This document shows, in pieces, positions 2,763 to 43,533 of a stretch of 64,000 bases of DNA (position 1 is its first letter; each line of letters opens with the position of its first letter). The notes beneath the pieces are model-generated. The model worked only from the letters and a program-made list of their open reading frames with translations. It did no database searches and was not told where the DNA came from. The DNA is from an uncultured Candidatus Saccharibacteria bacterium (GTDB taxonomy: Bacteria; Patescibacteriota; Saccharimonadia; CAILAD01; BJGX01), in the NCBI GenBank assembly GCA_964610335.1, contig CAZSVP010000003.1, positions 77,531 through 141,530 of the forward strand, written 5' to 3'. Position numbers and translations under genes: made by a program.

Positions 2763-3783
2763 GAAGTTTCTCTATTAGTTCAGATATATCACCATCCATC
2801 ACCTTAGGTAGGTTGTGGGTGGTGTAGCCAATGCGGTGGTCGGTAATCCGATCTTGAGGGTAGTTGTAGGTGCGGATCTTCTCACTGCGATCACCTGTAC
2901 CGATCTGACTTCGGCGAGCATCGCCTAGCTTCTTGGCTTCCTCTTCTTGCTGCTGAGCAAGCAAGCGGCTACGTAGCACACTCATGGCTTTGATCTTGTT
3001 TTTGAGCTGTGATTTCTCATCTTGGCAAGTGACGACTATGCCTGTGGGTATATGAGTAAGCCGCACAGCGCTATCAGTGGTATTAACACTCTGGCCACCA
3101 TTGCCGGAGCTACGATACACGTCGACCCGAAGATCATTGGGGCTTATTTCAATATCGTTTTCTTCGGCCTCAGGTAGTACTGCAACCGTGGCCGTACTGG
3201 TGTGAATTCGGCCGGCACTCTCGGTGGTAGGCACACGTTGTACACGGTGTACGCCGCTCTCATACTTGAGCGTGCCGTAGGCTTGATCGCCCGACACCTC
3301 AAATATTACCTCTTTGTAGCCACCTTCGGGGTTGGGGCTTTCGCTCAGCATTTGAGCCTTCAAATCGTGACGCTCACAGAAACGTACGTACATGCGCAAC
3401 AGATCACCGGCAAAGATTGAGCTTTCATCACCGCCAGCACCGGCTCGGATCTCAATAATGGCATTTTTGCGGTCATTGGGATCGGTTGGAATTAGTGCCA
3501 CTTGGATCTGTGATTCTAGCTTGGCCAATCTGGCTTCCAACTCGGGCACTTCCGCTTCGGCGAGCTCGCGCATCTCAGGGTCATTGAGCAAGGATTGGGC
3601 TTCTTTGAGCTGCTGCTGGCTTGATTGATAACGTTCAAACAGTTCCAGTTTGGATTGAAGCTCATGAGCTTGAGCACTCAAGCCCCCAGCTCGACCTGAT
3701 TTAAAGATTTCAGGATCTCTTAACTCAGCATTGATAGATTCAAGCTGTTGAGAGGTTTCCTTGATTTTGTCTGATATATCCAT
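2722..3783 (-). CDS. prfA: Peptide chain release factor 1
   Basis: GGQ motif '[23 protein letters not shown]' and PxT-type 'RVPTTES'; start refined to ATG at 3783 ('MDISDKIKE', the ORF-track start was TTG). Confidence 0.9.
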
Positions 3784-4303: not shown

Positions 4304-4720
4304 TTAGGCAGTTTCTTTGCCGATTTTGGCCTTGAGAATTAACTGACGGGTAGTGCCGGCATCGTCTGTTATCTCGGTCTGTTTAGTCTCTTCGTAATAG
4401 CTTACCAAATAGTGGCTGAGTATCTCTTCAAGATCTTTGAGTTTCAGGCGGTAATCATCGACCTCGGCACTGAGCTTTTGGTAATCTTTGTCGCTTAAGA
4501 GTAATTTCTTGGCTTCTGTGCGTTTGGTGGAAAGCTCCTTGATCTCTTCTTGGACGCGCTGGTATTCTTCGTTCTGGGTTAGGGCGTCACGTAGCTGGTC
4601 GCGCATGGTTTTAAGTTTGTCACGAGTTTCGCCAATTTCTGGCAGTAGCCGCTGGATAGCTACTAATGGGCTAGTGTCTTCAGGGGTTTGGTTTTCTTGG
4701 GTTTGATTCATGATAAGCAT
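4304..4720 (-). CDS. Hypothetical coiled-coil protein
   Basis: ORF is charged and helical with no recognisable motif. Confidence 0.45.
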
Positions 4721-8830: not shown

Positions 8831-10657
8831 TTAGCGCTGATTGTTGTGGCGCTTGCGCTCGTGAGGGCTCAGGTAGCGCTTACGAATGCGCAAATTCTCA
8901 GGCGTTACCTCCAGTAGCTCGTCACTTTCAATAAAGTCCAAGGCCTGCTCCAAGCTTAGCTCAGTATAAGGAGTAAGTTTGATGGCGTCATCTGACCCAC
9001 TAGCGCGTACATTGGTCAATTTCTTCTCGCGAACAACATTGATCTCCATGTCATCAGATCGAGTGTTGAGACCAATTACCATACCAGCATACACCTGTGT
9101 GCCAGGGCCGATTAAGGCAGTGCCACGAGCCTCAACTGTTTGGAGACTATAAGGTGTAGCAGTACCGTTTTCGGCGGCTATCAGAGCACCATTGCGCAGT
9201 TGTTGCAAGCTAGGACCGGCTGGAGCGTAGCCAATCGAGAGAGAATTCATAATTACAGTGCCCTTGGTGGCGGTAAGCAGTACATTGCGCAAACCCAGTA
9301 GAGTACGGGTAGGTAGCTCATATACCAGCTCACTGGTACCCTTAGTGGTGGCTCGCTGACTGGTAGCACTGGCGCGGCGCTGGCCAAGCTCACTCTGGAC
9401 CGCACCGACATACTGATCTGGTACTTCAATGGTAAGCTCTTCGATTGGCTCTTCGATCTCGCCATCAACTTCGCGGGTTACTACCTGTGGACGGCCCACC
9501 TCAAGCTCAAAGCCTTCGCGGCGCATAGTCTCTATCAAGACTGATAGATGGAGCTCACCACGTCCAGATACGACAAACTGTGTATCGCGCTCATCTACCA
9601 GCAAACCAATATTTGTTTCCAGCTCCTTATGCAAGCGCTCGGCTATCTGTCGGCTTGTAGTGTATTTACCTTCCTTGCCAGCAAACGGTGAGGTATTGGG
9701 GCCAATTGCTATCTGAAGTGTAGGTGGAGCAATAGCCATACTAGGAAGTGCTTCGGGGTTACTTGGGTCGGCGATAGTAGTACCTATCACAGCATTGTCT
9801 ATACCAGTTGCAGCTATGATATCACCAGCATGTGCCTCGGCTACTTCCACACGATTAAGACCCTGATTGACGAACACCTTATCTACCTTGGCAGCAGCTG
9901 GTTTGCCGTCGGCAGTTACCACAACTATTGATTGACCTGCCTTCAGCTTGCCGCGACGAATACGACCGATACAGTACTTACCCTGATAACTATCCCAATC
10001 TAGAGCTGTCACCAACATTTGCAGCGGTGCCTCTATATCAGTGGCTGGTGCTGGTATGTGATTGAGTATTGCTTCAAAGATTGGTGTCAGATCAGCTGTG
10101 ATGGTCATATCGGCAGGGATCTCACTCCAAGCTACGCCATCGCGACCAATTGCGTAGTAGATTGGGAATTCTAGTTGGTCATCTTGAGTTGCTAGGTCTA
10201 AGAATAAGTTACCGATTTCCTCCTCGACCTCTGATATACGAGCATCACGCTTGTCGATCTTATTGATCACTACTACTGGTTTGAGGCCCAGCTCGAGGGC
10301 TTTTTGGAGTACAAACTTAGTTTGGGGCATCGGGCCCTCTTGGGCATCGACAATCAGTAGCACGCCATCAGCCATGTTGAGTGTGCGCTCCACTTCACCA
10401 CTGAAGTCAGCGTGGCCAGGTGTGTCGATGATGTTGATTTTGGTGTCACCGTATTGCACAGCCGTTTGTTTGGCAGATATGGTGATGCCTCGTTCTCGTT
10501 CTAGATCACCGGTGTCCAAAATAGTGGTTTGGCTCATCTCGGCTTGATGCTCCGAAAATGCATTGGATTGCTTAAGTAGCCCATCTACCAAGGTAGTTTT
10601 ACCGTGGTCGACATGGGCGATAATAGCAATATTGCGGATGTTTTGGGTGTTCGGCAT
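8831..10657 (-). CDS. typA: Translational GTPase TypA/BipA
   Basis: '[15 protein letters not shown]', 'DTPGHADF' and 'NKIDK' G-motifs; length 608 aa. Confidence 0.9.
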
Positions 10658-34368: not shown

Positions 34369-35955
34369 ATGGCAGATTCATCTGAAACAGGACAACCACA
34401 AACACCTGATAAAGCGTCTACCTATGAGGATATTTTAGGTAAGATTCAACGCGGTGAATCATCTGGTGATGATTTGGCTGCGGCTATTCTAAGTGATTTA
34501 AGTGGTGAGTCCAATATGGATGAGCCTAACAATCCATATGTCGATGAGTTGATTGGTGTGCTAGAAGGTCAAACTGGCGATAACCCACTTCGAGATACTT
34601 TGCTGGATGTACTTCAAAAACTAGCTCAGGGCGGTGAAAAAAACCCATTAAAACCAACAGCCAAGGAGTCAGCTGCTAAAGCAGCAGCCGAGTTAGCAGA
34701 CGAGGACCATGGTAAGAAGTTAATACCAACCTTGGGTGAGATAAGGGCTGACTTTGAAGAGCAGACCGGTTTGCGATTACCGCCTGGCGAAAGGCCGTTG
34801 GACCAAAAACTCGAAGAAGCACGACTTGAAGTAGCACTTATGAGATCAAAACGCGAGGGGCGTCATGTGCTACTGCGCGGGAGTGAGGCTCGAGTAGCCA
34901 AGGCAGAACGCGCATATTGGTTGGTATCGAATGCTCGTGTACAGTGGATATTAACGGAGCGACTAATGGCCGAAGGTGTAGCAGATCAGGATGGTAACAT
35001 AGACGCAGCTAAGGCCTCAGAAATACTTAATTCAGCTGAGTTTCAGACTCAACTGATCCAAGCACAATTAGATGAAGAAGTTAAACTATCGCAGTCAATT
35101 CTAGATGTTCGCACTGGCAAAGCTGGCGGTAATATTGTTAGCCGCTGGGGGCGACGCATGGCTGAACGCTATGCCAAACATCCTAAGGCTAGATCTGGCA
35201 TTGCAGCTGGATTGCTTGGCGTGGGTGCTACAGCTGTTGCCACTGGTGGTGTTTCGTTAGTTGCGGCTGGTGCACTCTATGCTGGGCAGCGAATGCTGCG
35301 TAAGGTGGTAGGCGAACAATATGAATCGAAGGTAAAAGCCCCCAAGTTGGCCAAGAAAACTGAGCAAAAACGATCTGAGTTCCTAACTGGCGACAAAGCG
35401 CGGGCTTTTGGAGATGTGTTATTTAAGGCTTTTACAAAAAAGCTTGATAGTGAGCAAAAGAAAGCCGCCAGGTCTAAACCAGGTAGTATGGCAGAGTTAG
35501 CAAACCAAGTTACCCTTAGGGGCGCTGATCTACCAGAGCTCAAGATACTATTAGCATCTACGTATGAGATGATCAAGAACATTCATGAAAGCGATCCTGG
35601 TAACGAACAAATCCCCGAAAACTTGCCTCAAGCAGAACGGCGTCGGATTGAACTAATCCAAAGGCTGCGAGATACAGGTGTGACCTCCTTAGAAGAGGCT
35701 TTTAGTCAGTTAAGACCCGAGATGATAGCTGATGTTCTGACACTTTCGCTTGATCGTCGGTTGACAGAGACCCGCACACTAGCTCAACAAAGAGCACCTT
35801 GGTTTGCCAAAGGGTCAGATTGGCTAAGGCGTAGTACACGGGCTACCACTGCACGAGTTTGGCGCTCGTTGACTACACTTGATAACGAGGGTGAGGTTGA
35901 AGAGGAATCAGGCTTACCTGGAGGTTTGCCAGCTACACCTCCACCTACTATATAA
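34369..35955 (+). CDS. Hypothetical protein (acidic N-terminal region, central TM, basic/coiled C-region)
   Basis: 528-aa ORF with no recognisable motif. Confidence 0.5.
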   Translation: MADSSETGQPQTPDKASTYEDILGKIQRGESSGDDLAAAILSDLSGESNMDEPNNPYVDELIGVLEGQTGDNPLRDTLLDVLQKLAQGGEKNPLKPTAKESAAKAAAELADEDHGKKLIPTLGEIRADFEEQTGLRLPPGERPLDQKLEEARLEVALMRSKREGRHVLLRGSEARVAKAERAYWLVSNARVQWILTERLMAEGVADQDGNIDAAKASEILNSAEFQTQLIQAQLDEEVKLSQSILDVRTGKAGGNIVSRWGRRMAERYAKHPKARSGIAAGLLGVGATAVATGGVSLVAAGALYAGQRMLRKVVGEQYESKVKAPKLAKKTEQKRSEFLTGDKARAFGDVLFKAFTKKLDSEQKKAARSKPGSMAELANQVTLRGADLPELKILLASTYEMIKNIHESDPGNEQIPENLPQAERRRIELIQRLRDTGVTSLEEAFSQLRPEMIADVLTLSLDRRLTETRTLAQQRAPWFAKGSDWLRRSTRATTARVWRSLTTLDNEGEVEEESGLPGGLPATPPPTI

Positions 35956-35978
35956 CTAACAAAACATAGGAGTTTACC

Positions 35979-36323
35979 ATGAATGACACCCAGATAATCA
36001 TATTAAAAGAACTAGGTATAACTGATGCTAGTCCTGAGAAGCAAGCCGATATACTAGTCAAGATGGCTGAAGTTATTCAAAACCGCGTGGCAGTTAGGCT
36101 TACTGATATACTTACTGATCAGGAGCTGCAGCGCCTGGATGAACTGTCAGACAAAGACCCCGCTGAAATGTTTGCTTGGCTACAGCAAAATGTGCCTACC
36201 TATAATCTACTAGTTCAGGAAGAGACTATTCGGCTTCGCAACGAGCTAAGTCGAGGTTCTGTTGATATTAAGCAAGCTATATCTGAATATATTGATTCAA
36301 AGGCGCAAGCTCAGAGTACTTGA
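35979..36323 (+). CDS. Hypothetical small protein
   Basis: RBS 'ataggag'; 114 aa. Confidence 0.5.
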   Translation: MNDTQIIILKELGITDASPEKQADILVKMAEVIQNRVAVRLTDILTDQELQRLDELSDKDPAEMFAWLQQNVPTYNLLVQEETIRLRNELSRGSVDIKQAISEYIDSKAQAQST

Positions 36324-36348
36324 CAAAATAGTAATTATGTAGTATACT
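36320..36348 (+). promoter_or_regulatory. Strong sigma70-like promoter TTGACA-N17-TATACT reading into the GC-rich island
   Basis: TTGACA at 36320-36325 overlaps the stop of the upstream gene; TATACT at 36343-36348. Confidence 0.5.
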
Positions 36349-36580
36349 GGCCGCGATGATTTGCTATAGAGTAAATCAGTCCTTTTAAAACCGTTTCTGT
36401 AGCAATATGTTCTGGAGGGTCGCTTTTTGTGATACCTCTTTTTTGTTTGGTATTTGCCGATCTAAGGCAGAACCCTGCGTGCTATTGTGTCATCTGCCGC
36501 CCAGTTGATGCATGGCCGCAGGACTCTGCCTTAGTAAATCGTCTGCTCCCGCTCGGGAGCCAAAACCCGAGGAGGGAGCA

Positions 36581-37819
36581 ATGTCCATATTCGGTAATCG
36601 CGATGTGCCAGTGCCTGAAGTTGATGGCATTGGTATGCCTCTAGGTGACAGCAACCGTCACGCCCCACCACGGGACGAGGACGAGCTTGCGGCTCATCTG
36701 GCAGCAGCATTGCGAGCCAAGCAGACCAGCCGACCGTCAGCCCCGCCCGGGGATCCAAAGAACCCCGAGGAGGGAGACATGACGAACCTGGGAGAGATGC
36801 TCGACGACAAGAGTCGAGCCGCCCTCGATCAAGCACGTGCCAGTGCCGAGGCAGCCGTGGACTTCTCGCTCAGCTATGAAGAGTGGGTGCCATGGCTGAA
36901 CGAGCACGGCATTCCGGTACCGAGTTCGGGAGACCCCAACCCGGACGAAGACTGGAAGCAGGTCCGAGCCTTGGTGGGACTCTTCCCGAGCGCGACGCGC
37001 AAGGCGAAGGCTCACTACCGCGAAGTACAGGCTAGTATCGAGAAGCTTCACAGCTACCTTGAGCAGGCCTGGTTGTCAGCCTGCGAACTCTTGGCGCAAG
37101 CCGGAGCGCAGTACGCCAACACCCAACCACCAGAACCAACCAACCCGACAGCCCCTCCGGGGGGCACACCAACCCCTGAGGAGGGCGTCATGAAGACCAG
37201 CGAGCAGATCAAAGTCGAGGCAGCCGAGCTGATGAAGGACTGGGCCAAACCCGAGCTGACCAGCGGTCTCTACCGCTGGGATGCCACGGTCTGGGACACC
37301 AGCCGGATCGGCGATGGCAAGATCGGCTACATTGGCCTCCTCTCGGGGAAGCTGATGTTCAGCCAGATCACGTACCTCGAGGAGTGCGTCGAGCGCGGAC
37401 GGGACCATCCCTTCGACAGCAACGACGTGCTCGACCAGCTCCACGTGCTGGTCCGCGAGTGGCTGAGCCTCGACCCGGCCTTCGTGGCCTTGGACGAGGC
37501 AGATGCCAAGCGCGAGGTGAGTCGGGCGGTCTATCGCGTGTTGCGCGGTGAGATCGCCTTCGACCAGGTGGCTTACGTGCCACCGCTCACCCCTGAGGAC
37601 CGGGCGGCAGCTCTGGCGGCGTCCATCCAGGCCGCAACCAAGCCCGAGGCCAAGAAGGTCAAGGGTCGTCGGCGCGGACGCGACAAGGGTGACAAGCCCA
37701 AGTCCGCCTCGGCGTTGCCCTCACCTCCGGTCACCCCTGTGGTGGTCGGCAGCCCGACCCTCGGTCGGTACGGCATCGCCGCCGCCACCGCCCTCGGTGA
37801 GGTCTGGCAGTCGCGCTAG
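36581..37819 (+). CDS. Island gene A: Pro/Ala-rich hypothetical protein (~412 aa) with a basic C-terminus
   Basis: Very high GC; GGAGGGAG SD 5 nt upstream of the ATG at 36581; two further in-frame SD+ATG units inside. Confidence 0.6.
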   Translation: MSIFGNRDVPVPEVDGIGMPLGDSNRHAPPRDEDELAAHLAAALRAKQTSRPSAPPGDPKNPEEGDMTNLGEMLDDKSRAALDQARASAEAAVDFSLSYEEWVPWLNEHGIPVPSSGDPNPDEDWKQVRALVGLFPSATRKAKAHYREVQASIEKLHSYLEQAWLSACELLAQAGAQYANTQPPEPTNPTAPPGGTPTPEEGVMKTSEQIKVEAAELMKDWAKPELTSGLYRWDATVWDTSRIGDGKIGYIGLLSGKLMFSQITYLEECVERGRDHPFDSNDVLDQLHVLVREWLSLDPAFVALDEADAKREVSRAVYRVLRGEIAFDQVAYVPPLTPEDRAAALAASIQAATKPEAKKVKGRRRGRDKGDKPKSASALPSPPVTPVVVGSPTLGRYGIAAATALGEVWQSR

Positions 37820-37867
37820 TTCGTGGCTGTCAGTGGTTGGTCTCGTTTGCTACAGGAGCGCGAGAGT

Positions 37868-37895
37868 GGTGTGGGGGTCTTCGGACCCCCACACC
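37868..37895 (+). terminator. Perfect 12-bp GC hairpin with a UUCG loop after gene A (no U-tract)
   Basis: 'ggtgtgggggtc-ttcg-gacccccacacc'. Confidence 0.45.
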
Positions 37896-37988
37896 TCAAC
37901 CACACTACTAGGATTAGTATTCCGATTGTGTCGAGTAGACAATTCAACATGCTTGAGACAGTCGGAAACCTGCTCCTGTAGCAACTTC

Positions 37989-38021
37989 AAACCCGTACCT
38001 CGGTGCAAACCGGGGGAATAC
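37989..38021 (+). repeat. Copy 1 of a 33-nt conserved leader element 'aaacccgtacctcggtgcaaaccgggggaatac' (plus upstream 'gctcctgta') preceding gene B
   Basis: Identical to 38519-38551. Confidence 0.8.
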
Positions 38022-38034
38022 CAAGGAGGCCCAC

Positions 38035-38361
38035 ATGGGACTCGCAGATGACCTGGCCGCACGCAAAGCAGCGAAGCAGGCTCCGCCGCCGCCCGCCAAG
38101 ACCACCATCGATGAGGTGGACAAGGCGATCGATGTGGCGCTCGCGCCCATCGTCGACGACTTCACCAAGGTCGTCACGGAGGCCCTCGCGCTCTTCGACA
38201 AGGAGACCGCGAGCGATGACTTCCTGGAGCGACTTCTGGTCGCGTTGGGAGACACCGATCTGCCCACCGGTGACGGCGTGCTCGAGGCCAAGGTGGCCGC
38301 TGCGGTCAACCGCGGCGTCGCCAACGCCATCGCCGCCGTGGTCGCCAACGCGACCAAGTGA
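38035..38361 (+). CDS. Island gene B: small acidic helical protein (108 aa)
   Basis: AGGAGG RBS; ATG at 38035. Confidence 0.6.
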   Translation: MGLADDLAARKAAKQAPPPPAKTTIDEVDKAIDVALAPIVDDFTKVVTEALALFDKETASDDFLERLLVALGDTDLPTGDGVLEAKVAAAVNRGVANAIAAVVANATK

Positions 38362-38373
38362 GCAGTTGCTCGG

Positions 38374-38404
38374 CCACCGGCGTACTCTCGTAGTACGTCG
38401 GTGG
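38374..38404 (+). terminator. 13-bp stem hairpin (one G.U) with a CUCG loop after gene B
   Basis: 'ccaccggcgtact-ctcg-agtacgtcggtgg'. Confidence 0.4.
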
Positions 38405-38518
38405 CATGAGCCACCACACATTCACATTAGATGTATAGAATCGTCTTGCTGATATTTATCTTCATGGCAATGGAGCATTACTTCGGTAGTGATCAGCAAC
38501 CGCGCTCCTGTACAAACC

Positions 38519-38551
38519 AAACCCGTACCTCGGTGCAAACCGGGGGAATAC
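38519..38551 (+). repeat. Copy 2 of the 33-nt leader element preceding gene C
   Basis: Identical to 37989-38021. Confidence 0.8.
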
Positions 38552-38566
38552 TAGTTGGAGACTGTT

Positions 38567-39067
38567 ATGGCAGCACCAATGGCCGCGGCCGCAGCTCAAG
38601 GGTTGTTGGCTGCATTTGGCGGCGCTAACCCGCCGCCGCCCGGGGGCAATCCACCCGGCGGTGGAATGCAACCACGAAATGCTGGCATCGTCGCTGGCAT
38701 CGTCGCTTCGGTACTCGCGATCCTGACCTACATCGGGTTGGGACTGTGGGACGCTGTCGGCTGGGGCAAGGGTCTGATCGGTTTCGTGCTCGTTGGTGTT
38801 CTCGCCTTCGGGGTCACGTTTCTCATCTGCATCCGTCCACCTCAGCCGCGACAGCCCGCCGCTCCGGCACCAGCACCAGCGGCCACCAACCACACCTTCA
38901 TCGCCATCATGGTGGGGTGTGGTACGACGATCGTTGCTTCGATCGTTGCGGTGGTGGCTGTCAGCCGGTTCAGCGATGACGGTGCCTTCAGGATGTTGGC
39001 CTTCCTGGCCCCATACCTGATAGCCGGAGTCATCGCCACTCGGGCACTGTTCAAGCGCGGCAGCTAG
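38567..39067 (+). CDS. Island gene C: 4-TM membrane protein with a Pro/Gly-rich N-terminus
   Basis: ATG at 38567 (the ORF-track start was TTG); four hydrophobic helices. Confidence 0.55.
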   Translation: MAAPMAAAAAQGLLAAFGGANPPPPGGNPPGGGMQPRNAGIVAGIVASVLAILTYIGLGLWDAVGWGKGLIGFVLVGVLAFGVTFLICIRPPQPRQPAAPAPAPAATNHTFIAIMVGCGTTIVASIVAVVAVSRFSDDGAFRMLAFLAPYLIAGVIATRALFKRGS

Positions 39068-39100
39068 GCCGACCATGAAGGGGAACCTCCATGGTCGGCC
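39067..39100 (+). terminator. 11-bp perfect hairpin after gene C
   Basis: 'ggccgaccatg-aaggggaacctc-catggtcggcc'. Confidence 0.4.
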
Positions 39101-39298
39101 GCGAGGCCCTGGGCTGAGTTTCTCGATTTGCGTCGAGAGACCACCCAGGTGCCCTCGCACCTCAACCTACATATTAGGCTTATGCTTTATAAGAGACCGT
39201 AACAAGTGTAATCTTAATATGTGGGCTGAATCTTGGAGAGAAAACCAAGCTTAAGCACACAACCGCACCCATACATCAACCATAGAGGAGGTGGTCCT

Positions 39299-40726
39299 AT
39301 GACACGTAGTCACAGGATCTTCGCCGCCTGTGCGATTGTCTTCACCATGCTCATTGCATTGGTGGGGGCGGTTGCCATCGGCACATCGAGTGGTCAGACC
39401 GCCTCAAGCGGCAGCACGACCACGACATCACTCGAGCCAGTCCCTGGCTCGGTCACCACCACGCCAGCGCCAACCGACAACGTGCCGGCGGCCACGCCCG
39501 AGGAGCGCAAACCCACGGTCACGGCTGAGCAGTGTCACGATCGGATCGGTGCCTCGGAAGAGAAGGACCGCGAGCTCCAGGAGCAAGGCATCACCGCCGA
39601 ACAGTGTGGTCTGCTGCTGGTGGAGCTCTGTCAGAAGGTCGACTTCGATGGCGTTCGCGCCCTCGGAGAGTCCGACCCATCAGGCAAGTGCGCCGCCGTG
39701 ATGGCCGGTGTGAGTACGACGCAGAACACCGCGCCGACCAGCACCGCGCCTGGAGCAACAGCTCCATCTGGCACAACGCCGGGCTCAACGGCACCGCCAA
39801 CCACGGCTACCCCAACGCCTCGTCAACCCGATGTGGTGGATCTCATGATCTATCTGCAGAAGGTCAGCATGGCCGAAGGGCACGTCCAAGGAGTCGGTGT
39901 CACCTGTGAGGCCAATTGCGTTCTGCGCGACGGTATCACGGCTGATACCCCCGAGGGCATGTTCGCCCAGCTCATGAGCAAGGGTCTCGTCTCGCCAGTC
40001 TTTCTCGATGATGCAGCCCGCACCATCGCGTTCCAGACCGGGCAGGAGTACACCGACACTCGAGAGGTGGGCGACGCCGCCAAGGCCGGCAGTGACACAC
40101 TGATCGTGCTGAACTGGATCAAGGACCCGAGCACCCCAACCATGTTGGAGCGCGGGATCTTGCCAGCCGGCACGACGCTGTACAACACCGTCGTACAAGA
40201 CGGCAAGGTGGTGCAGTTCAGCTACACCACCAACCGGGATCGGGTCTACCTCAAGATCTGGAAGGGCGACACCTTCCTGATGTGGTTCGACAGCTGCGGG
40301 AACAGGACGAGCGATCGTCCGACGCCTGGAGTGCCCGAGACCCCAACGCCGCCACCGCACGACGACGAGCCACCGACCACGACGACACCACCACCGACCG
40401 GTGGGCCGACCCCGACCACGACACCACCAGCGTGTCCGCCAGGCACGATCTGGAACCCGGTCACGAAGAAGTGTGGGAAGTTGGATACCCATCCAGTGGG
40501 ACCCAACAGCCCTGTTCCTACCCAGGTGCAGGGCCCAGGGCCAACCCATCCGGCAGGGCCACCCAACACGGCGATCGAGCATCCGAACCCCACGACTGGT
40601 TGCAATCCAACCTGTCCGGGGGCAACGACGCCCACCACAAGGGCGGTGACACCCACGGTGCCGCCGATCGTCACCAGCACCACGTACCAGCCGCCTCCGA
40701 CGCCCACCACCATGGGCGGGCCGTAG
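39299..40726 (+). CDS. Island gene D: secreted or anchored Thr/Pro-rich protein (signal-anchor 'MTRSHRIFAACAIVFTMLIALVGAVAIG', PT-rich C-terminus)
   Basis: GGAGGTGG RBS; ATG at 39299. Confidence 0.6.
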   Translation: MTRSHRIFAACAIVFTMLIALVGAVAIGTSSGQTASSGSTTTTSLEPVPGSVTTTPAPTDNVPAATPEERKPTVTAEQCHDRIGASEEKDRELQEQGITAEQCGLLLVELCQKVDFDGVRALGESDPSGKCAAVMAGVSTTQNTAPTSTAPGATAPSGTTPGSTAPPTTATPTPRQPDVVDLMIYLQKVSMAEGHVQGVGVTCEANCVLRDGITADTPEGMFAQLMSKGLVSPVFLDDAARTIAFQTGQEYTDTREVGDAAKAGSDTLIVLNWIKDPSTPTMLERGILPAGTTLYNTVVQDGKVVQFSYTTNRDRVYLKIWKGDTFLMWFDSCGNRTSDRPTPGVPETPTPPPHDDEPPTTTTPPPTGGPTPTTTPPACPPGTIWNPVTKKCGKLDTHPVGPNSPVPTQVQGPGPTHPAGPPNTAIEHPNPTTGCNPTCPGATTPTTRAVTPTVPPIVTSTTYQPPPTPTTMGGP

Positions 40727-40811
40727 TCGGCACTGACAACTCTGGCCTCGAGTGAGGACCGTCGCCAGAGTGAGAAGTCCCAGTCCTCCATGATGTATGG
40801 GTGCAATTGCT

Positions 40812-40839
40812 GCCCTGGGGAGCCAAAACTCCCCAGGGC
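40812..40839 (+). terminator. 11-bp GC hairpin with a CCAAAA loop after gene D, near the island's right boundary
   Basis: 'gccctggggag-ccaaaa-ctccccagggc'. Confidence 0.4.
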
Positions 40840-40890
40840 TAGCACCCACACCCTAAGCTGAAGACAGTGCAGCTACTAGCTACCTTGTCT

Positions 40891-40908
40891 TCAGGATAGG
40901 TATCCTGA
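40891..40908. promoter_or_regulatory. Palindrome 'tcaggata-gg-tatcctga' (8-bp arms), a putative regulator binding site
   Basis: Located 21 bp upstream of the -35 box of the LPXTG-gene promoter. Confidence 0.35.
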
Positions 40909-40928
40909 AAAGAAAACCATAACAAATA

Positions 40929-40957
40929 TTGACACCAATACTAAATTATGATATTAT
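40929..40957 (+). promoter_or_regulatory. Near-consensus promoter TTGACA-N17-TATTAT for the LPXTG gene
   Basis: Motifs at 40929-40934 and 40952-40957. Confidence 0.55.
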
Positions 40958-41055
40958 AACCGCTAATTGAGAGGCGGAGCTCATTTACAGCCAAATACGA
41001 TGCATTTACTAATTGAGACTTGTCAAACATTAAACCTGACAAGGAAGGAAACTAT

Positions 41056-42351
41056 ATGAAAAAGAAATCAACTTTTCGTAAAGTTCTCGGCATTGTATTG
41101 GCAACAGTAGCTTTAGTGGTAATGCCACTGGCTGCAGCTGCTGATTGGAGCCCTGAACGACCGATCAAAGAATATTATCCAGGAGTACCTGGTTTTGATC
41201 ATGTGACATTTAACTCGTTTGTTAAAACCGCCAATTATGGCGACGAACGACTTTTCTATACTGCCAAGGATGCGGCTAATACCAATTCTGGCGGTTTCGA
41301 TGACAGCATGCAGGTGCATGCTGGTCAAGAGATACTTATGCGCACCTATATACATAACGGTGCCGACTCAAGTCTCAATGCAGGTGGCACGGGCATAGCT
41401 CGTAACACCAAGGTAAAGGTAATGCTGCCAAGTGGCTATGACAAAGCCTTGCGCTCTGTTAGCTACATAAGTGCTAGCAATGCACAGCCAGGTACTGTAG
41501 CGGCTTCTGTTGATCTAAAGGGTGACAACCCATTTGGTCTGCAGTATGTTGCAGGATCTGCTATGGCTTATAGTAACCAAGCTCCCAATGGCTTCAAACT
41601 CAACGATAGTATCGTGGGTGATGGCGCCTTGGTCGGTAATGTTGCTCCAGATGGTAATGTACCAGGCTGCTTCGAGTATGGTGTGGTTGTAACCATGAAA
41701 GTGAAAGTTACAGCTGCCAACTTGAGCATTCAAAAGCAAGTTGGTATCCCAGGCTCTGGTCAATGGAAAGAACAAGTACAAGTCGGCAAAGGTGATACTG
41801 TAAGCTGGGGAATCCACTACGAAAACACCGGTGACCGCGTCATGCACAAAGAAGTAGTAACTGACAAACTACCCCCTTACCACGAAGTGGTACCAGGTAG
41901 TGTCAAGCTCTACGTGCCCAATGCTCCAGAAGGCGCTCAACTCAATGACACTTCGTTGTTTAACGAAGGTGTAATGGTTGGTGACTACGCTCCAGGAGCT
42001 GGTGGTAACATACGTTACCAAACTCGGGTCAAACAAGATGTACCTGCAAACTTGCTAATGCGTAATGTGGCTTGTATCGGATCAGATGAGACTCAGACTG
42101 ACATCTGTGATGATGCTACTACTATTACCCCTCCAACACCTCCACCTACACCGGAGTGTTTGCCAGGCATACCAGTAGGTGATAGCCGCTGTAACCCTGT
42201 AACGCCTCCCCCTACAGGTGGTCCGTTGCCAGCAACTGGTGTGGAAAGTGGCTTGGCTGCAAGTCTAGGCATGACTGCCCTTACAACCGGTGGTTATATG
42301 CTACGACGTAGCCGTAAGGACCTCAAAAAGGCCCTCACCAAAGTAAAATAA
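41056..42351 (+). CDS. LPXTG-anchored cell-surface protein (sortase substrate)
   Basis: Signal peptide 'MKKKSTFRKVLGIVLATVALVVMPLAAAADW'; C-terminal 'LPATG' plus hydrophobic stretch plus 'RRSRKD' sorting signal. Confidence 0.8.
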   Translation: MKKKSTFRKVLGIVLATVALVVMPLAAAADWSPERPIKEYYPGVPGFDHVTFNSFVKTANYGDERLFYTAKDAANTNSGGFDDSMQVHAGQEILMRTYIHNGADSSLNAGGTGIARNTKVKVMLPSGYDKALRSVSYISASNAQPGTVAASVDLKGDNPFGLQYVAGSAMAYSNQAPNGFKLNDSIVGDGALVGNVAPDGNVPGCFEYGVVVTMKVKVTAANLSIQKQVGIPGSGQWKEQVQVGKGDTVSWGIHYENTGDRVMHKEVVTDKLPPYHEVVPGSVKLYVPNAPEGAQLNDTSLFNEGVMVGDYAPGAGGNIRYQTRVKQDVPANLLMRNVACIGSDETQTDICDDATTITPPTPPPTPECLPGIPVGDSRCNPVTPPPTGGPLPATGVESGLAASLGMTALTTGGYMLRRSRKDLKKALTKVK

Positions 42352-42371: not shown

Positions 42372-42408
42372 AAGACCCAAATCTCACCTCGAGAGGCGGG
42401 TCTTTTTG
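42372..42408 (+). terminator. Intrinsic terminator (agaccc...gggtct plus TTTTT)
   Basis: Hairpin followed by a T-run directly after the LPXTG gene. Confidence 0.55.
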
Positions 42409-42429
42409 ATTTATTGGTATAATAAAGTC

Positions 42430-43533
42430 ATGAAAGATATTGTGAAACAACTGACTGGGTTATTAAACCAGGTTGATAATGCCATAGATGCACTTAGTCT
42501 CGAAGCTGATGAGGCAAAGTTGGCTGGTATGGAAGAACAAATGATAGCAAGTGATTTCTGGCAAGACACCATGCAAGCCGAGCAGGTTAGCCGCGAGGCC
42601 GCTGAGCTTAAACGCTACATTGGGTCCTGGCGCGATTTACGCGAGGAGCTTGCTACGACCCTCGAATTGGCCGAATTGTCGAGTGATTCACAGTCAAGTG
42701 AGTTCAGTGATTTACTAGCTGATTATAATAGGCGCGTTGGGGAGCAAATGCTGGCACTCAAGCTTGGTGGAGAACACGACAAAGCAGCTGCAATTATCCA
42801 ACTAAGTGCTGGGGTTGGTGGTACAGATGCTGCTGATTGGGCTCAGATGCTCGAAACAATGTACATCAAGTATGCCAACACACACGGATTTAGCGTGGAA
42901 GTACTGGAAGAATCGCCCAGTGAAGAGGCTGGCATCAAGAGTGCAACCTTGCGAGTAAGTGGCCCATTTGCTTTTGGCAAACTAAAGGGTGAGTCAGGAG
43001 TACATCGGCTGGTGCGTTTGAGCCCATTCAATTCCGACAATCTTCGTCAAACTAGTTTTGCCTTGGTAGAGGTGTTGCCAGAAATAGTGGCAACCGAGTC
43101 GGTTTTGGATCCCAAAGATCTGCGAGTCGATGTCTACCGCAGTTCTGGCCACGGTGGCCAAAGTGTGAATACTACTGATAGTGCAGTTCGGTTGACACAT
43201 ATTCCAACTGGTATGACTGTGGCAGTCCAAAACGAGCGTTCTCAGCTCAAGAACAAACAAATGGCCATGTCGATATTGGCAGCTAAACTCAATAAACTTG
43301 CAGAAGAACAACACTTGGCAAATGTATCAGACCTCAAAACTAGCAGTAAGTCAGCCGATTGGGGAGCGCAGATACGCAACTATGTGTTGCACCCATATCA
43401 AAAAGTCAAAGATGTACGCACTGGCTACGAAACTAGTGATACCACAGGGGTCTTGGCTGGTGAACTAGAACCATTTATAGAGGCTTACCTTAATAAACAA
43501 GTAGGAAATCCCGAAAGCAAAAGGCAAAAATAA
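42430..43533 (+). CDS. prfB: Peptide chain release factor 2 (no programmed frameshift)
   Basis: 'SPF' tripeptide in 'RLSPFNS' and the GGQ motif '[23 protein letters not shown]'; ATG at 42430, with TATAAT ending 6 nt upstream. Confidence 0.85.
   Translation: MKDIVKQLTGLLNQVDNAIDALSLEADEAKLAGMEEQMIASDFWQDTMQAEQVSREAAELKRYIGSWRDLREELATTLELAELSSDSQSSEFSDLLADYNRRVGEQMLALKLGGEHDKAAAIIQLSAGVGGTDAADWAQMLETMYIKYANTHGFSVEVLEESPSEEAGIKSATLRVSGPFAFGKLKGESGVHRLVRLSPFNSDNLRQTSFALVEVLPEIVATESVLDPKDLRVDVYRSSGHGGQSVNTTDSAVRLTHIPTGMTVAVQNERSQLKNKQMAMSILAAKLNKLAEEQHLANVSDLKTSSKSADWGAQIRNYVLHPYQKVKDVRTGYETSDTTGVLAGELEPFIEAYLNKQVGNPESKRQK

Follow-up and report, generated by a model that had tools for sequence, protein, structure and literature searches.

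A repeated leader element and a covarying inverted repeat in a small-gene cluster of Saccharibacteria

Introduction

Why do two neighbouring genes carry exactly the same 34 nt in front of their Shine–Dalgarno (SD) sequences, and what is the meaning of a perfect 13-bp inverted repeat beside one of them? Both questions are raised by a 64-kb stretch of DNA from an uncultured Candidatus Saccharibacteria bacterium (GenBank assembly GCA_964610335.1, contig CAZSVP010000003.1, positions 77,531 to 141,530), here called the window, in which the genes A, B, C and D lie side by side. How Saccharibacteria and other ultra-small episymbiotic bacteria regulate their genes is almost unknown, and the locus is a compact case that can be tested. 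An earlier note on the window had described the repeat as a leader element of B and C and had suggested an RNA thermometer, an operator, a shared protein site or attenuator-like pairing; our results support this interpretation in part. The repeat belongs to a leader architecture that is kept in divergent lineages with different sequences, and one arm of the inverted repeat changes together with the other. Very probably, both the leader and the inverted repeat have a function and are conserved.

Results

The repeat and the inverted repeat in the window

The repeat, given as 33 nt in the earlier note, is real, exact and one base longer: 34 nt (CAAACCCGTACCTCGGTGCAAACCGGGGGAATAC) are identical in the leaders of B and C (Table 1). 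The distances described for it also hold, the element ending 13 nt before the ATG of B and 15 nt before that of C. The window contains two matches at up to three mismatches, and 100 shuffled sequences contained none. Both copies have the 9-nt block GCTCCTGTA upstream, again as described. This sequence occurs three times in the 64 kb (37972 and 38504 on the forward strand, 37851 on the reverse strand), where 0.51 are expected, and never outside the leader region; 3 of 100 shuffles also gave three occurrences. Within the window the block is found only in this gene cluster. A dispersed repeat family of the kind of repetitive extragenic palindromic (REP) sequences or miniature inverted-repeat transposable elements does not fit two 34-mers in 64 kb and a cluster-confined block.

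The leaders of B and C are homologous over about 50 nt at 92% identity with one 2-nt indel. The similarity weakens further 5', the identity ends directly 3' of the 34-nt element, and the remainder of the two spacers is about 55% alike or less. A recent tandem duplication of a larger segment is thus not supported, since exact identity covers 34 nt and homology about 50 nt only.

The 13-bp inverted repeat is perfect (TTGCTACAGGAGC at 37847–37859, GCTCCTGTAGCAA at 37972–37984), with 112 nt between its arms, as the earlier note stated. In a second register TACAGGAGCGCG (37851–37862) matches CGCGCTCCTGTA (38501–38512) in the leader of gene C over 12 bp. By our own estimate about 0.3 inverted repeats of 13 bp with arms up to 300 nt apart are expected by chance in 64 kb, and the significance of this one must therefore come from comparative data and not from the window alone.

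The repeat is also present in independent samples. Both copies are found in L001 (JGI contig Ga0493733_0004733), which is 98.3% identical to the window. Seven Logan contigs from different runs, encoding an identical C protein, all start exactly 30 nt into the element plus the first unique base, as an assembly graph with k=31 does at a repeat. In L002 (ENA ERZ27258567 k141_459910) gene B is 97% identical and the 34-mer and the SD are unchanged, with five differences in the approximately 100 nt 5' of them. The upstream part of L002 is of the B–C type and not of the A–B type: its positions 1–510 correspond to 38424–38520 joined to 37988–38404 of the window, i.e. B–C-type upstream spacer, 34-mer and gene B; of the 530 nt in a circularly permuted repeat unit the contig covers 510. 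The block of L002 reads GATCCTGTA. The junction could stem from a tandem duplication of B, from recombination between the two 34-mers that excised a circle, or from a chimeric assembly. The exact pattern of the element was also scanned for in viral, genome and metagenome collections; no hit was returned, not even L001, which carries it. Scans of the same kinds of collections with a pattern from the alignment of protein D returned no relatives and missed GCA_016191105.1, which carries a D homologue. Since known carriers were missed, these negative scans are no evidence of absence.

A shared leader plan and the hairpin P2

Contigs of relatives were reached through homologues of A and D (W denotes the window, and L001–L023 the compared contigs or lineages). 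The cluster is present in L015, L016/L017 (which carry the name Candidatus Saccharibacteria), L018, L019 and L020, and in a reduced form in L023. Inspection and folding of the spacers from all lineages gave one plan for the leaders of the small genes. Just 3' of the upstream stop codon there is a GC hairpin without a U run, followed by a helix, H, enclosing one or two hairpins (P1, often with a UNCG loop); then come the block of 9–13 nt, an A/U-rich spacer, a hairpin that we call P2, 9–12 nt, the SD and the ATG. The distance from block end to ATG is 50–57 nt in all P2-bearing leaders. Equivalents of helix H occur in every lineage (AUCCUGG:CCAGGAU, with compensatory CCUGA:UCAGG in L019 and UUCCGAUUGU:ACAGUCGGAA in W). 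P1 is the consensus helix in an unsupervised alignment of eight leaders, where three of its seven pairs show compensatory change.

P2 lies in the 34-nt element. The earlier note had predicted a fold just 5' of the SD made of CCC/GGG and CGG/CCG stems around a UGCAAA loop. A stable hairpin is indeed found there, although in another form: the minimum free energy (MFE) structure has seven uninterrupted base pairs, CCUCGGU/ACCGGGG, closed by a GCAA (GNRA) loop, at −12.3 kcal/mol and z −1.8. Nine of the 12 small-gene leaders have such a hairpin of 6–9 bp located 9–12 nt 5' of the SD. The stems are unrelated in sequence across lineages (CCUCGGU/ACCGGGG, CCUACCC/GGGUGGG, CCCGCC/GGCGGG, CCGGUAGCU/AGCUGCCGG), and they are G/C-rich and stable (−12 to −18 kcal/mol, z −1.25 to −3.4). 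When the leaders are aligned on the hairpin, 98.4% of cells are paired compared with 29–52% in slid controls, a percentage that is inflated because the alignment was anchored by hand, and all seven pairs have changed on both sides. Independent of anchoring are the constant position of P2, z-scores down to −3.4 and the compensations from G–C to A–U in L018 and from C–G to U–A in L019; L015 has wobble shifts and L020 one A·C mismatch. P2 is missing from both L017 leaders and from one of the three L018/L020 leaders and is thus dispensable, a point against the explanation favoured below. The two P2 copies of L019 differ in both stem and loop (UACC and CAAG) within a single genome, which argues for a structural role over a sequence-specific operator. 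Conservation of P2 appears to concern position and pairing and not sequence.

These data bear on the functions proposed for the repeat. Common handling of B and C, as the earlier note had it, is implied by the shared non-coding feature 5' of both SDs, and a shared sequence-specific protein site at P2 is unlikely given the L019 copies. A classical RNA thermometer is not supported either: with the last P2 base at 38015 and the first SD base at 38025 (SDs follow P2 after 9–11 nt), the SD is outside the hairpin, whose stem is G/C-rich and has no interruption. In Rfam, neither the gathering threshold nor a cut-off of E up to 10 gave a family for the leader element; the best covariance-model scores in 35500–41500 were 14–18 bits against thresholds of 34–100, and the whole window gave a single tRNA. 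We rejected an upstream open reading frame, which in the B leader has its stop inside the block and in the C leader is not conserved, and judged by eye that the spacings do not fit sigma-54, extracytoplasmic function (ECF) or sigma-28 promoters.

The block covaries with a sequence behind gene A

The block differs between lineages. It reads GCTCCTGTAGCAA in W, CCGCTCCCT(T) in L015, L017 and L019, and ACCCCGTCAG in L018 and L020. In every lineage its reverse complement, the anti-block, is located 5–28 nt past the stop codon of gene A and just before the hairpin. This makes three covarying classes: GCTCCTGTAGCAA/TTGCTACAGGAGC (W), CCGCTCCCTT/AAGGGAGCGG (L015, L017, L019) and ACCCCGTCAG/CTGACGGGGT (L018, L020). 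Since RNAduplex over-extends on long inputs and discriminates weakly, we counted exact complements with internal controls. The 45 nt after A contain 8–13 nt exactly complementary to leaders of the same genome, compared with 4–8 nt after B, C and D, and among all five lineages only the post-A region carries 8–13 nt of this kind. In folds of whole A–B intergenic regions the probability of anti-block:block pairing is 0.93, 0.95, 0.85, 0.99 and 0.82, and 0.37 in L017. The long-range pairing of the inverted repeat suggested by the earlier note is thus meaningful, with covariation in five lineages and probabilities of 0.82–0.99 in five of six folds.

The anti-block of 16–24 nt is used in different registers, with 13 and 12 nt in W and with 12, 9+4 and 10+5 nt with bulges in L015. 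Gene A itself has a copy of the block in its leader, at +37 to +52 from the start implied by the sole canonical promoter of the cluster. This copy is complementary to the anti-block over 13–15 nt across a bulge in L015 and L017, and in the alignment of A leaders the block column holds the own block of the lineage (L015, L017, L020). Helices continue after G·U in three of five cases and after A·C in none of seven, which speaks for RNA.

Is this pairing of RNA or a symmetry of DNA? Complementarity between a 5' and a 3' untranslated region (UTR) is kept by covariation in five lineages and three classes. From their position past a stop codon or before an SD, downstream of the only canonical promoter, we infer that both partners are in transcribed untranslated RNA. 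Both are in sense-strand untranslated stretches, they pair in differing registers and with bulges, and the anti-block occupies the place typical of a seed, between stop codon and terminal hairpin. The cluster has no recognisable DNA-binding protein or recombinase, and all assemblies are in one orientation. Several findings weigh against RNA pairing with a regulatory effect. The duplexes are short (9–13 bp) and there are three independent block classes only. Compared with shuffled controls, RNAduplex scores are modest (z −1 to −4.5), and the first mismatch at duplex ends has no wobble bias (5 G·U, 7 A·C, 20 other). An inverted protein-bound DNA site would covary in the same way. With the block masked in silico, the SD is about as accessible as before and the start codon becomes more accessible in only some 5 of 12 leaders; thermodynamics therefore gives no support to a simple 'anti-anti-SD' activation. 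By MFE, occlusion of the SD by the block and its release through the anti-block suit the B leader of W and the L019 leaders, but the accessibility values do not support this in general; a block acting as anti-SD freed by the anti-block is no more than a possibility. Taken together, it is probable that the pairing takes place at the RNA level.

Table 1. Positions of the leader elements and related features in the window
Feature	Position	Strand	Remarks
34-nt element, copy 1 (CAAACCCGTACCTCGGTGCAAACCGGGGGAATAC)	37988–38021	+	gene B leader; spacer end CAAACCCGUA; P2 arms 37998–38004 and 38009–38015; GCAA loop 38005–38008; tail GAAUAC
34-nt element, copy 2 (CAAACCCGTACCTCGGTGCAAACCGGGGGAATAC)	38518–38551	+	gene C leader; P2 5' arm 38528–38534, loop 38535–38538, 3' arm 38539–38545
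SD of B (GGAGG)	38025–38029	+	ATG 38035
SD of C (GGAGA)	~38557–38562	+	ATG 38567, the start of the gene callers in L003–L009
Block, B leader (GCUCCUGUAGCAA)	37972–37984	+	13 nt complementary to anti-block; pairing probability 0.93 (whole A–B intergenic fold)
Block, C leader (CGCGCUCCUGUA)	38501–38512	+	12 nt complementary to anti-block, shifted register
Anti-block (UUGCUACAGGAGCGCG)	37847–37862	+	gene A 3' untranslated; 28 nt past stop, 5 nt before hairpin
Block copy, gene A 5' leader (GUUUCUGUAGCAA)	36393–36405	+	pairs with 13/13 nt of anti-block (11 Watson–Crick, 2 G·U)
Hairpin after gene A (GGTGTGGGGGTC-TTCG-GACCCCCACACC)	37868–37895	+	12 bp, UUCG loop, no U tract
Hairpin P1, C leader (CAUUAC-UUCG-GUAGUG)	38476–38491	+	
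Helix H, A–B intergenic	37920–37968	+	UUCCGAUUGU 37920–37929 with ACAGUCGGAA 37959–37968; encloses inner hairpin
Helix H, B–C intergenic	38446–38499	+	UUGCUGAU 38446–38453 with AUCAGCAA 38492–38499; encloses P1
Sigma-70-type promoter (TTGACA-17-TATACT)	36320–36348	+	11/12; only such site 5' of genes A–D
Hairpin plus U run, gene A leader	36414–36448	+	directly after block; intrinsic-terminator-like, putative attenuator or small RNA 3' end
Gene A	36581–37819		
Gene D	39299–40726		

Promoter, terminators and the leader of gene A

L015, L017, L020 and L023 share the promoter in front of gene A. The hairpins after A, B, C and D have no U tract, as opposed to the A leader and the flanking genes, which use a hairpin plus a U run. 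The hairpin that the earlier note had taken for the terminator of gene A exists within the 112-nt segment; it lacks the U tract and was not called by a terminator scan, which found no terminator-like site in the spacers. Its role is probably to stabilise the 3' end or to terminate weakly. No sigma-70-like promoter was found inside the segment. The bases that follow are GAAUAC for P2 and UCAACC for the hairpin after A; since neither is a U run, the attenuator-like reading does not fit. With a single canonical promoter 5' of A, no U runs after A–D and helix H at most 25 nt past the hairpins, a read-through or polycistronic A–D RNA is plausible.

The head of the cluster (36320–36448) resembles a small RNA (sRNA) or an attenuator in its anatomy, with a promoter, a 5' hairpin, a single-stranded block and a hairpin with U run, and this order is conserved in L015, L017, L020 and L023. 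In W the 5' hairpin arm UUGCUAUAG can pair with the block instead. The 5' parts of the leader have z-scores of −1.7 to −4.5 in four lineages. Between the U-run hairpin and the SD of A there is a conserved structured domain of about 75 nt (W 36462–36534; L015 ~3371–3447; L017 ~9877–9955; L020 ~4412–4485). RNAalifold gives it 32 pairs, 11 of them compensatory among only five sequences, with a covarying 10-bp outer stem, a conserved CCUGCG/CGCAGG stem and an invariant UGCCGCCCA apex. The domain has no match in Rfam and is a candidate for a new cis-regulatory RNA.

A perfect palindrome, AGGATAGGTATCCT (extended TCAGGATAGGTATCCTGA), is located at 40893–40906, 22 nt 5' of the canonical promoter (40929–40957) of the LPXTG gene E. 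AGGAT-N4-ATCCTG also occurs in the small-gene spacers of L015, L017 and L019, where its right half is the 5' arm of helix H. The presence of (T/A)AGGAT-N4-ATCCTG in the spacers of relatives, and alone 5' of the E promoter, makes internal promoters regulated by a protein possible. If such promoters are present, the anti-block would act in trans.

The gene cluster

The order of the cluster in relatives is murD, (murL), a protein of about 460–540 aa, DUF5663, an A-like gene, one to three small genes, a protein with four transmembrane segments, D, an LPXTG/DUF11 protein, prfB and ftsE/X. The earlier note had called the genes an island. Their GC content is 0.61–0.63 (A, B, C, D) compared with 0.42–0.49 in the genome. 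Protein identity between W and L017 is 46% for D, with 57% for E and 39% for DUF5663 in the flanks; because the cluster has diverged like its flanks, there was no recent foreign insertion. From these comparisons the island appears to be an old syntenic cluster of Saccharibacteria, present in at least five divergent lineages.

GC content at third codon positions (GC3) is 0.64–0.91 in the cluster and 0.35–0.51 in the flanks in every lineage (contrast intervals W 36450–40900, L017 10001–14059, L020 4551–9401, L023 7081–9395). The cluster thus holds its GC3 30–40 points over its own genome, even with protein D at 46% identity. A described GC-rich island in Saccharibacteria was looked for in the literature, with no relevant result.

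Compared with L019, E is 94.5% identical at the DNA level, the D–E spacer 92%, the C–D spacer 83% and D 68.5%, while A, B, C and their spacers are at about 55%, the level of unalignable sequence. This makes the left half of the cluster hypervariable or mosaic. Next to E, the housekeeping gene prfB reaches only 77% identity (W 41056–42351 and 42406–43533; L019 4297–5595 and 5665–6765), a contrast that points to recombination or mosaicism at the right border. The C–D spacer is better conserved than the proteins that it separates (D 68.5%, C about 55%), and the leader of gene D (W 39068–39298; L019 2287–2509; L020 7755–8000) is a separate conserved non-coding module without the block. The motif CACCTCAACC follows hairpins at 37892 and 39158. 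Between W and L001 all differences in the cluster are in patches of A and D (36892–37504, 39496–40582), including several in-frame indels, with zero differences in 37505–39495 (end of A, B, C and both leaders). This pattern suggests that the patches are diversifying.

Gene A contains three in-frame copies resembling an SD plus ATG (AAACCCGAGGAGGGAGCAATG and variants; peptide P-EEG-x-M) at 36563–36583, 36761–36781 and 37172–37192. Each has a small GC hairpin 5' of it, and A is thus split into three modules. Some relatives match module 3 only (P0003, P0004), others module 2 (P0005, P0006), and gene callers differ on the start of A (412 or 346–347 aa). The triple motif may represent internal initiation sites or fused genes. 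Searches with A–D in Pfam, PHROGs, NCBIfam, PADLOC and PDB sequences gave nothing usable, and BLAST of the island against phage records gave no match. Homologues of gene B form one near-identical cluster only. The core of D was modelled with a predicted local distance difference test score (pLDDT) of 70–87 and has no fold match in the PDB; the model of A (pLDDT 39) is too poor for use.

Discussion

What, then, are the repeat and the inverted repeat for? Our tentative answer is that the small genes of a Saccharibacteria-specific cluster have a modular, highly structured 5' leader, of which the 34-nt repeat is the part conserved best. P2 would be a structural hairpin marking the 5' edge of the ribosome-binding site; most likely it insulates this site and shields the B and C messages at their 5' ends. 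The block would serve as a lineage-specific address sequence that base pairs in RNA with the anti-block after the stop codon of A. Since A, B and C all have this block in their leaders, one anti-block would have three alternative partners, and the choice of partner may couple or apportion the expression or stability of the three genes, so that the effect would be exerted on translation or on RNA stability. This could happen in cis, where the anti-block and the block of B would close a multi-hairpin domain of about 125 nt on the A–D transcript and leave P2 free-standing, or in trans, via a stable 3' end of the A message. As a specific mechanism, pairing of the anti-block with the leaders of A, B and C together with a structural P2 is possible, if somewhat short of probable. 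Its strongest version, an RNA 'address code' in which the 3' end of A pairs alternatively with leader motifs of A, B and C and thereby sets the expression of the cluster, is rather unlikely in our view.

Other explanations start from the same features. The structures could be only processing and stability determinants of one polycistronic A–D mRNA, with no switching of partners. An endonuclease would then cut the A/U-rich spacer between block and P2; the upstream 3' end would be shielded by the anti-block:block domain and the GC hairpin and the downstream 5' end by P2, and the block copies in the C and A leaders would be paralogous leftovers with local partners. The one canonical promoter 5' of A, with none found in the intergenic regions, is consistent with this, and so are the hairpins without U tracts after A, B, C and D, helix H at most 25 nt behind them, by which the whole spacer seems to be transcribed, and the constant distance of 9–12 nt between P2 and SD. 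The block in the B–C spacer does have a local partner (UGUAUAG:CUGUACA). Such processing leaves unexplained, however, why the A leader, which is no paralogue of the B and C leaders, has the lineage-specific block with 10–15 nt of extended complementarity, and why the C leader has 12 nt in a register of its own. We consider it unlikely. Somewhat less likely still is that the block is a double-stranded DNA site for a regulator or recombinase and the anti-block its inverted copy, so that the 112-bp segment would be an invertible switch, or the sites would loop or roadblock transcription. The perfect inverted repeat around an A/T-richer segment, the one inverted and three direct copies, and the rearranged junction at the element in L002 would suit this reading, DNA symmetry predicts the same covariation, and the AGGAT-N4-ATCCT palindrome in spacers of relatives and at 40893–40906 points to DNA-binding regulation nearby. 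Yet the six assemblies spanning the left junction and all lineages have the same orientation, and the inverted junction (CTCGTTTGCTACAGGAGC followed directly by AGGTT) is not found in the assemblies. A–D have no recombinase or regulator match in Pfam, NCBIfam, PHROGs or PADLOC, and a recombinase search of A–D and their neighbours gave no match. The site is non-palindromic, leaders match it in varied registers with bulges and G·U pairs that a protein site would not need, and the L002 junction is in the 34-mer and not in the block. An inverton is unlikely.

It is very unlikely that P2 and its flanks form the operator of a sequence-specific RNA-binding protein, be it a translational repressor or an activator, or a thermometer. 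Such a role would explain why the two copies in W are identical over 34 nt between diverged flanks, why L001, L002 and seven Logan samples show no change in the element, and why a GNRA loop adjoins the SD. It does not agree with an SD outside the hairpin, a stem and loop that are conserved neither between lineages nor within L019, a stable G/C-rich stem that is unlike melting thermometers, and the absence of P2 from L017. Finally, the repeat might be functionless, a residue of recent duplication or gene conversion of paralogous spacers, accompanied by a chance inverted repeat. The spacers are paralogous modules, in L018/L020 the duplication reaches into the first eight codons, and by the estimate given above an inverted repeat of 13 bp with arms up to 300 nt apart is no rarity in 64 kb. 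Against this, identity is limited to 34 nt in spacers that are otherwise about 55% alike, the same architecture occurs with different sequences in five lineages, complementarity outlives alignability, and repeats of 10–13 nt would be too short for upkeep by gene conversion, judging from known minimal recombination substrates. The functionless reading is hardly credible, being already largely refuted by the covariation of block and P2.

If the address code is real, the Candidate Phyla Radiation (CPR) would have its first described RNA-based regulatory circuit. To this the leader of gene A would contribute a transcript of sRNA or attenuator type and one more structured domain with covariation. 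The comparison thus yields two further candidate RNA elements, both in the gene A leader. It is plausible that the fast-evolving membrane and secreted proteins next to an LPXTG surface protein are host-interaction genes.

Among known systems, the nearest precedents appear to be the base pairings between 5'UTR and 3'UTR within one mRNA, those of icaR in Staphylococcus aureus (PMC3868564) and hbs in Bacillus subtilis (PMC5737220). As in both, a short 3'UTR sequence before the terminal hairpin is complementary to a leader motif of the same gene. The likeness to icaR extends in W, L015, L017 and L019 to an SD-like 3' motif (AGGAG or GGGAG) and an anti-SD-like leader motif (CUCC). Here, in contrast to both, the 3' motif has three partners, its own leader and the leaders of the two genes that follow; the leader motif stands about 50 nt before the start codon and is not the SD, and the L018/L020 class has no SD/anti-SD character.

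sRNAs derived from 3'UTRs, such as CpxQ, SroC and DapZ, have their seed just 5' of the terminator hairpin. The anti-block resembles them in being single-stranded between a stop codon and a strong hairpin and in having several targets in varied registers; it differs in that the targets are neighbouring genes of the cluster and the hairpin has no U tail. Neither processing nor a chaperone is known from Saccharibacteria. Intercistronic stem-loops provide discoordinate expression of operons in pap, puf, malEFG (REP) and iscRSUA/RyhB. Common to them and our cluster are GC-rich hairpins after stop codons, A/U-rich single-stranded spacers and a hairpin before the next ribosome-binding site; unlike in those operons, the long-range closing helix covaries and its 3' strand recurs in other leaders. 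Invertible promoters, for example fimS and the Bacteroides invertons, also have short perfect inverted repeats flanking a segment of about 110 bp between two genes, but here no recombinase was found in the cluster, assemblies have a single orientation, there are extra direct copies and the covariation is of RNA type. With the cis-regulatory families of Rfam the leader shares its structure 5' of a coding sequence, without matching any family even at E up to 10. The element is neither a thermometer nor an attenuator, a Rfam family or a recent duplication, and would be a case of RNA-level control of a known kind. It differs from the known cases by one 3' sequence with three leader partners, by the co-evolution of a lineage-specific code and by its place in a bacterium of the CPR.

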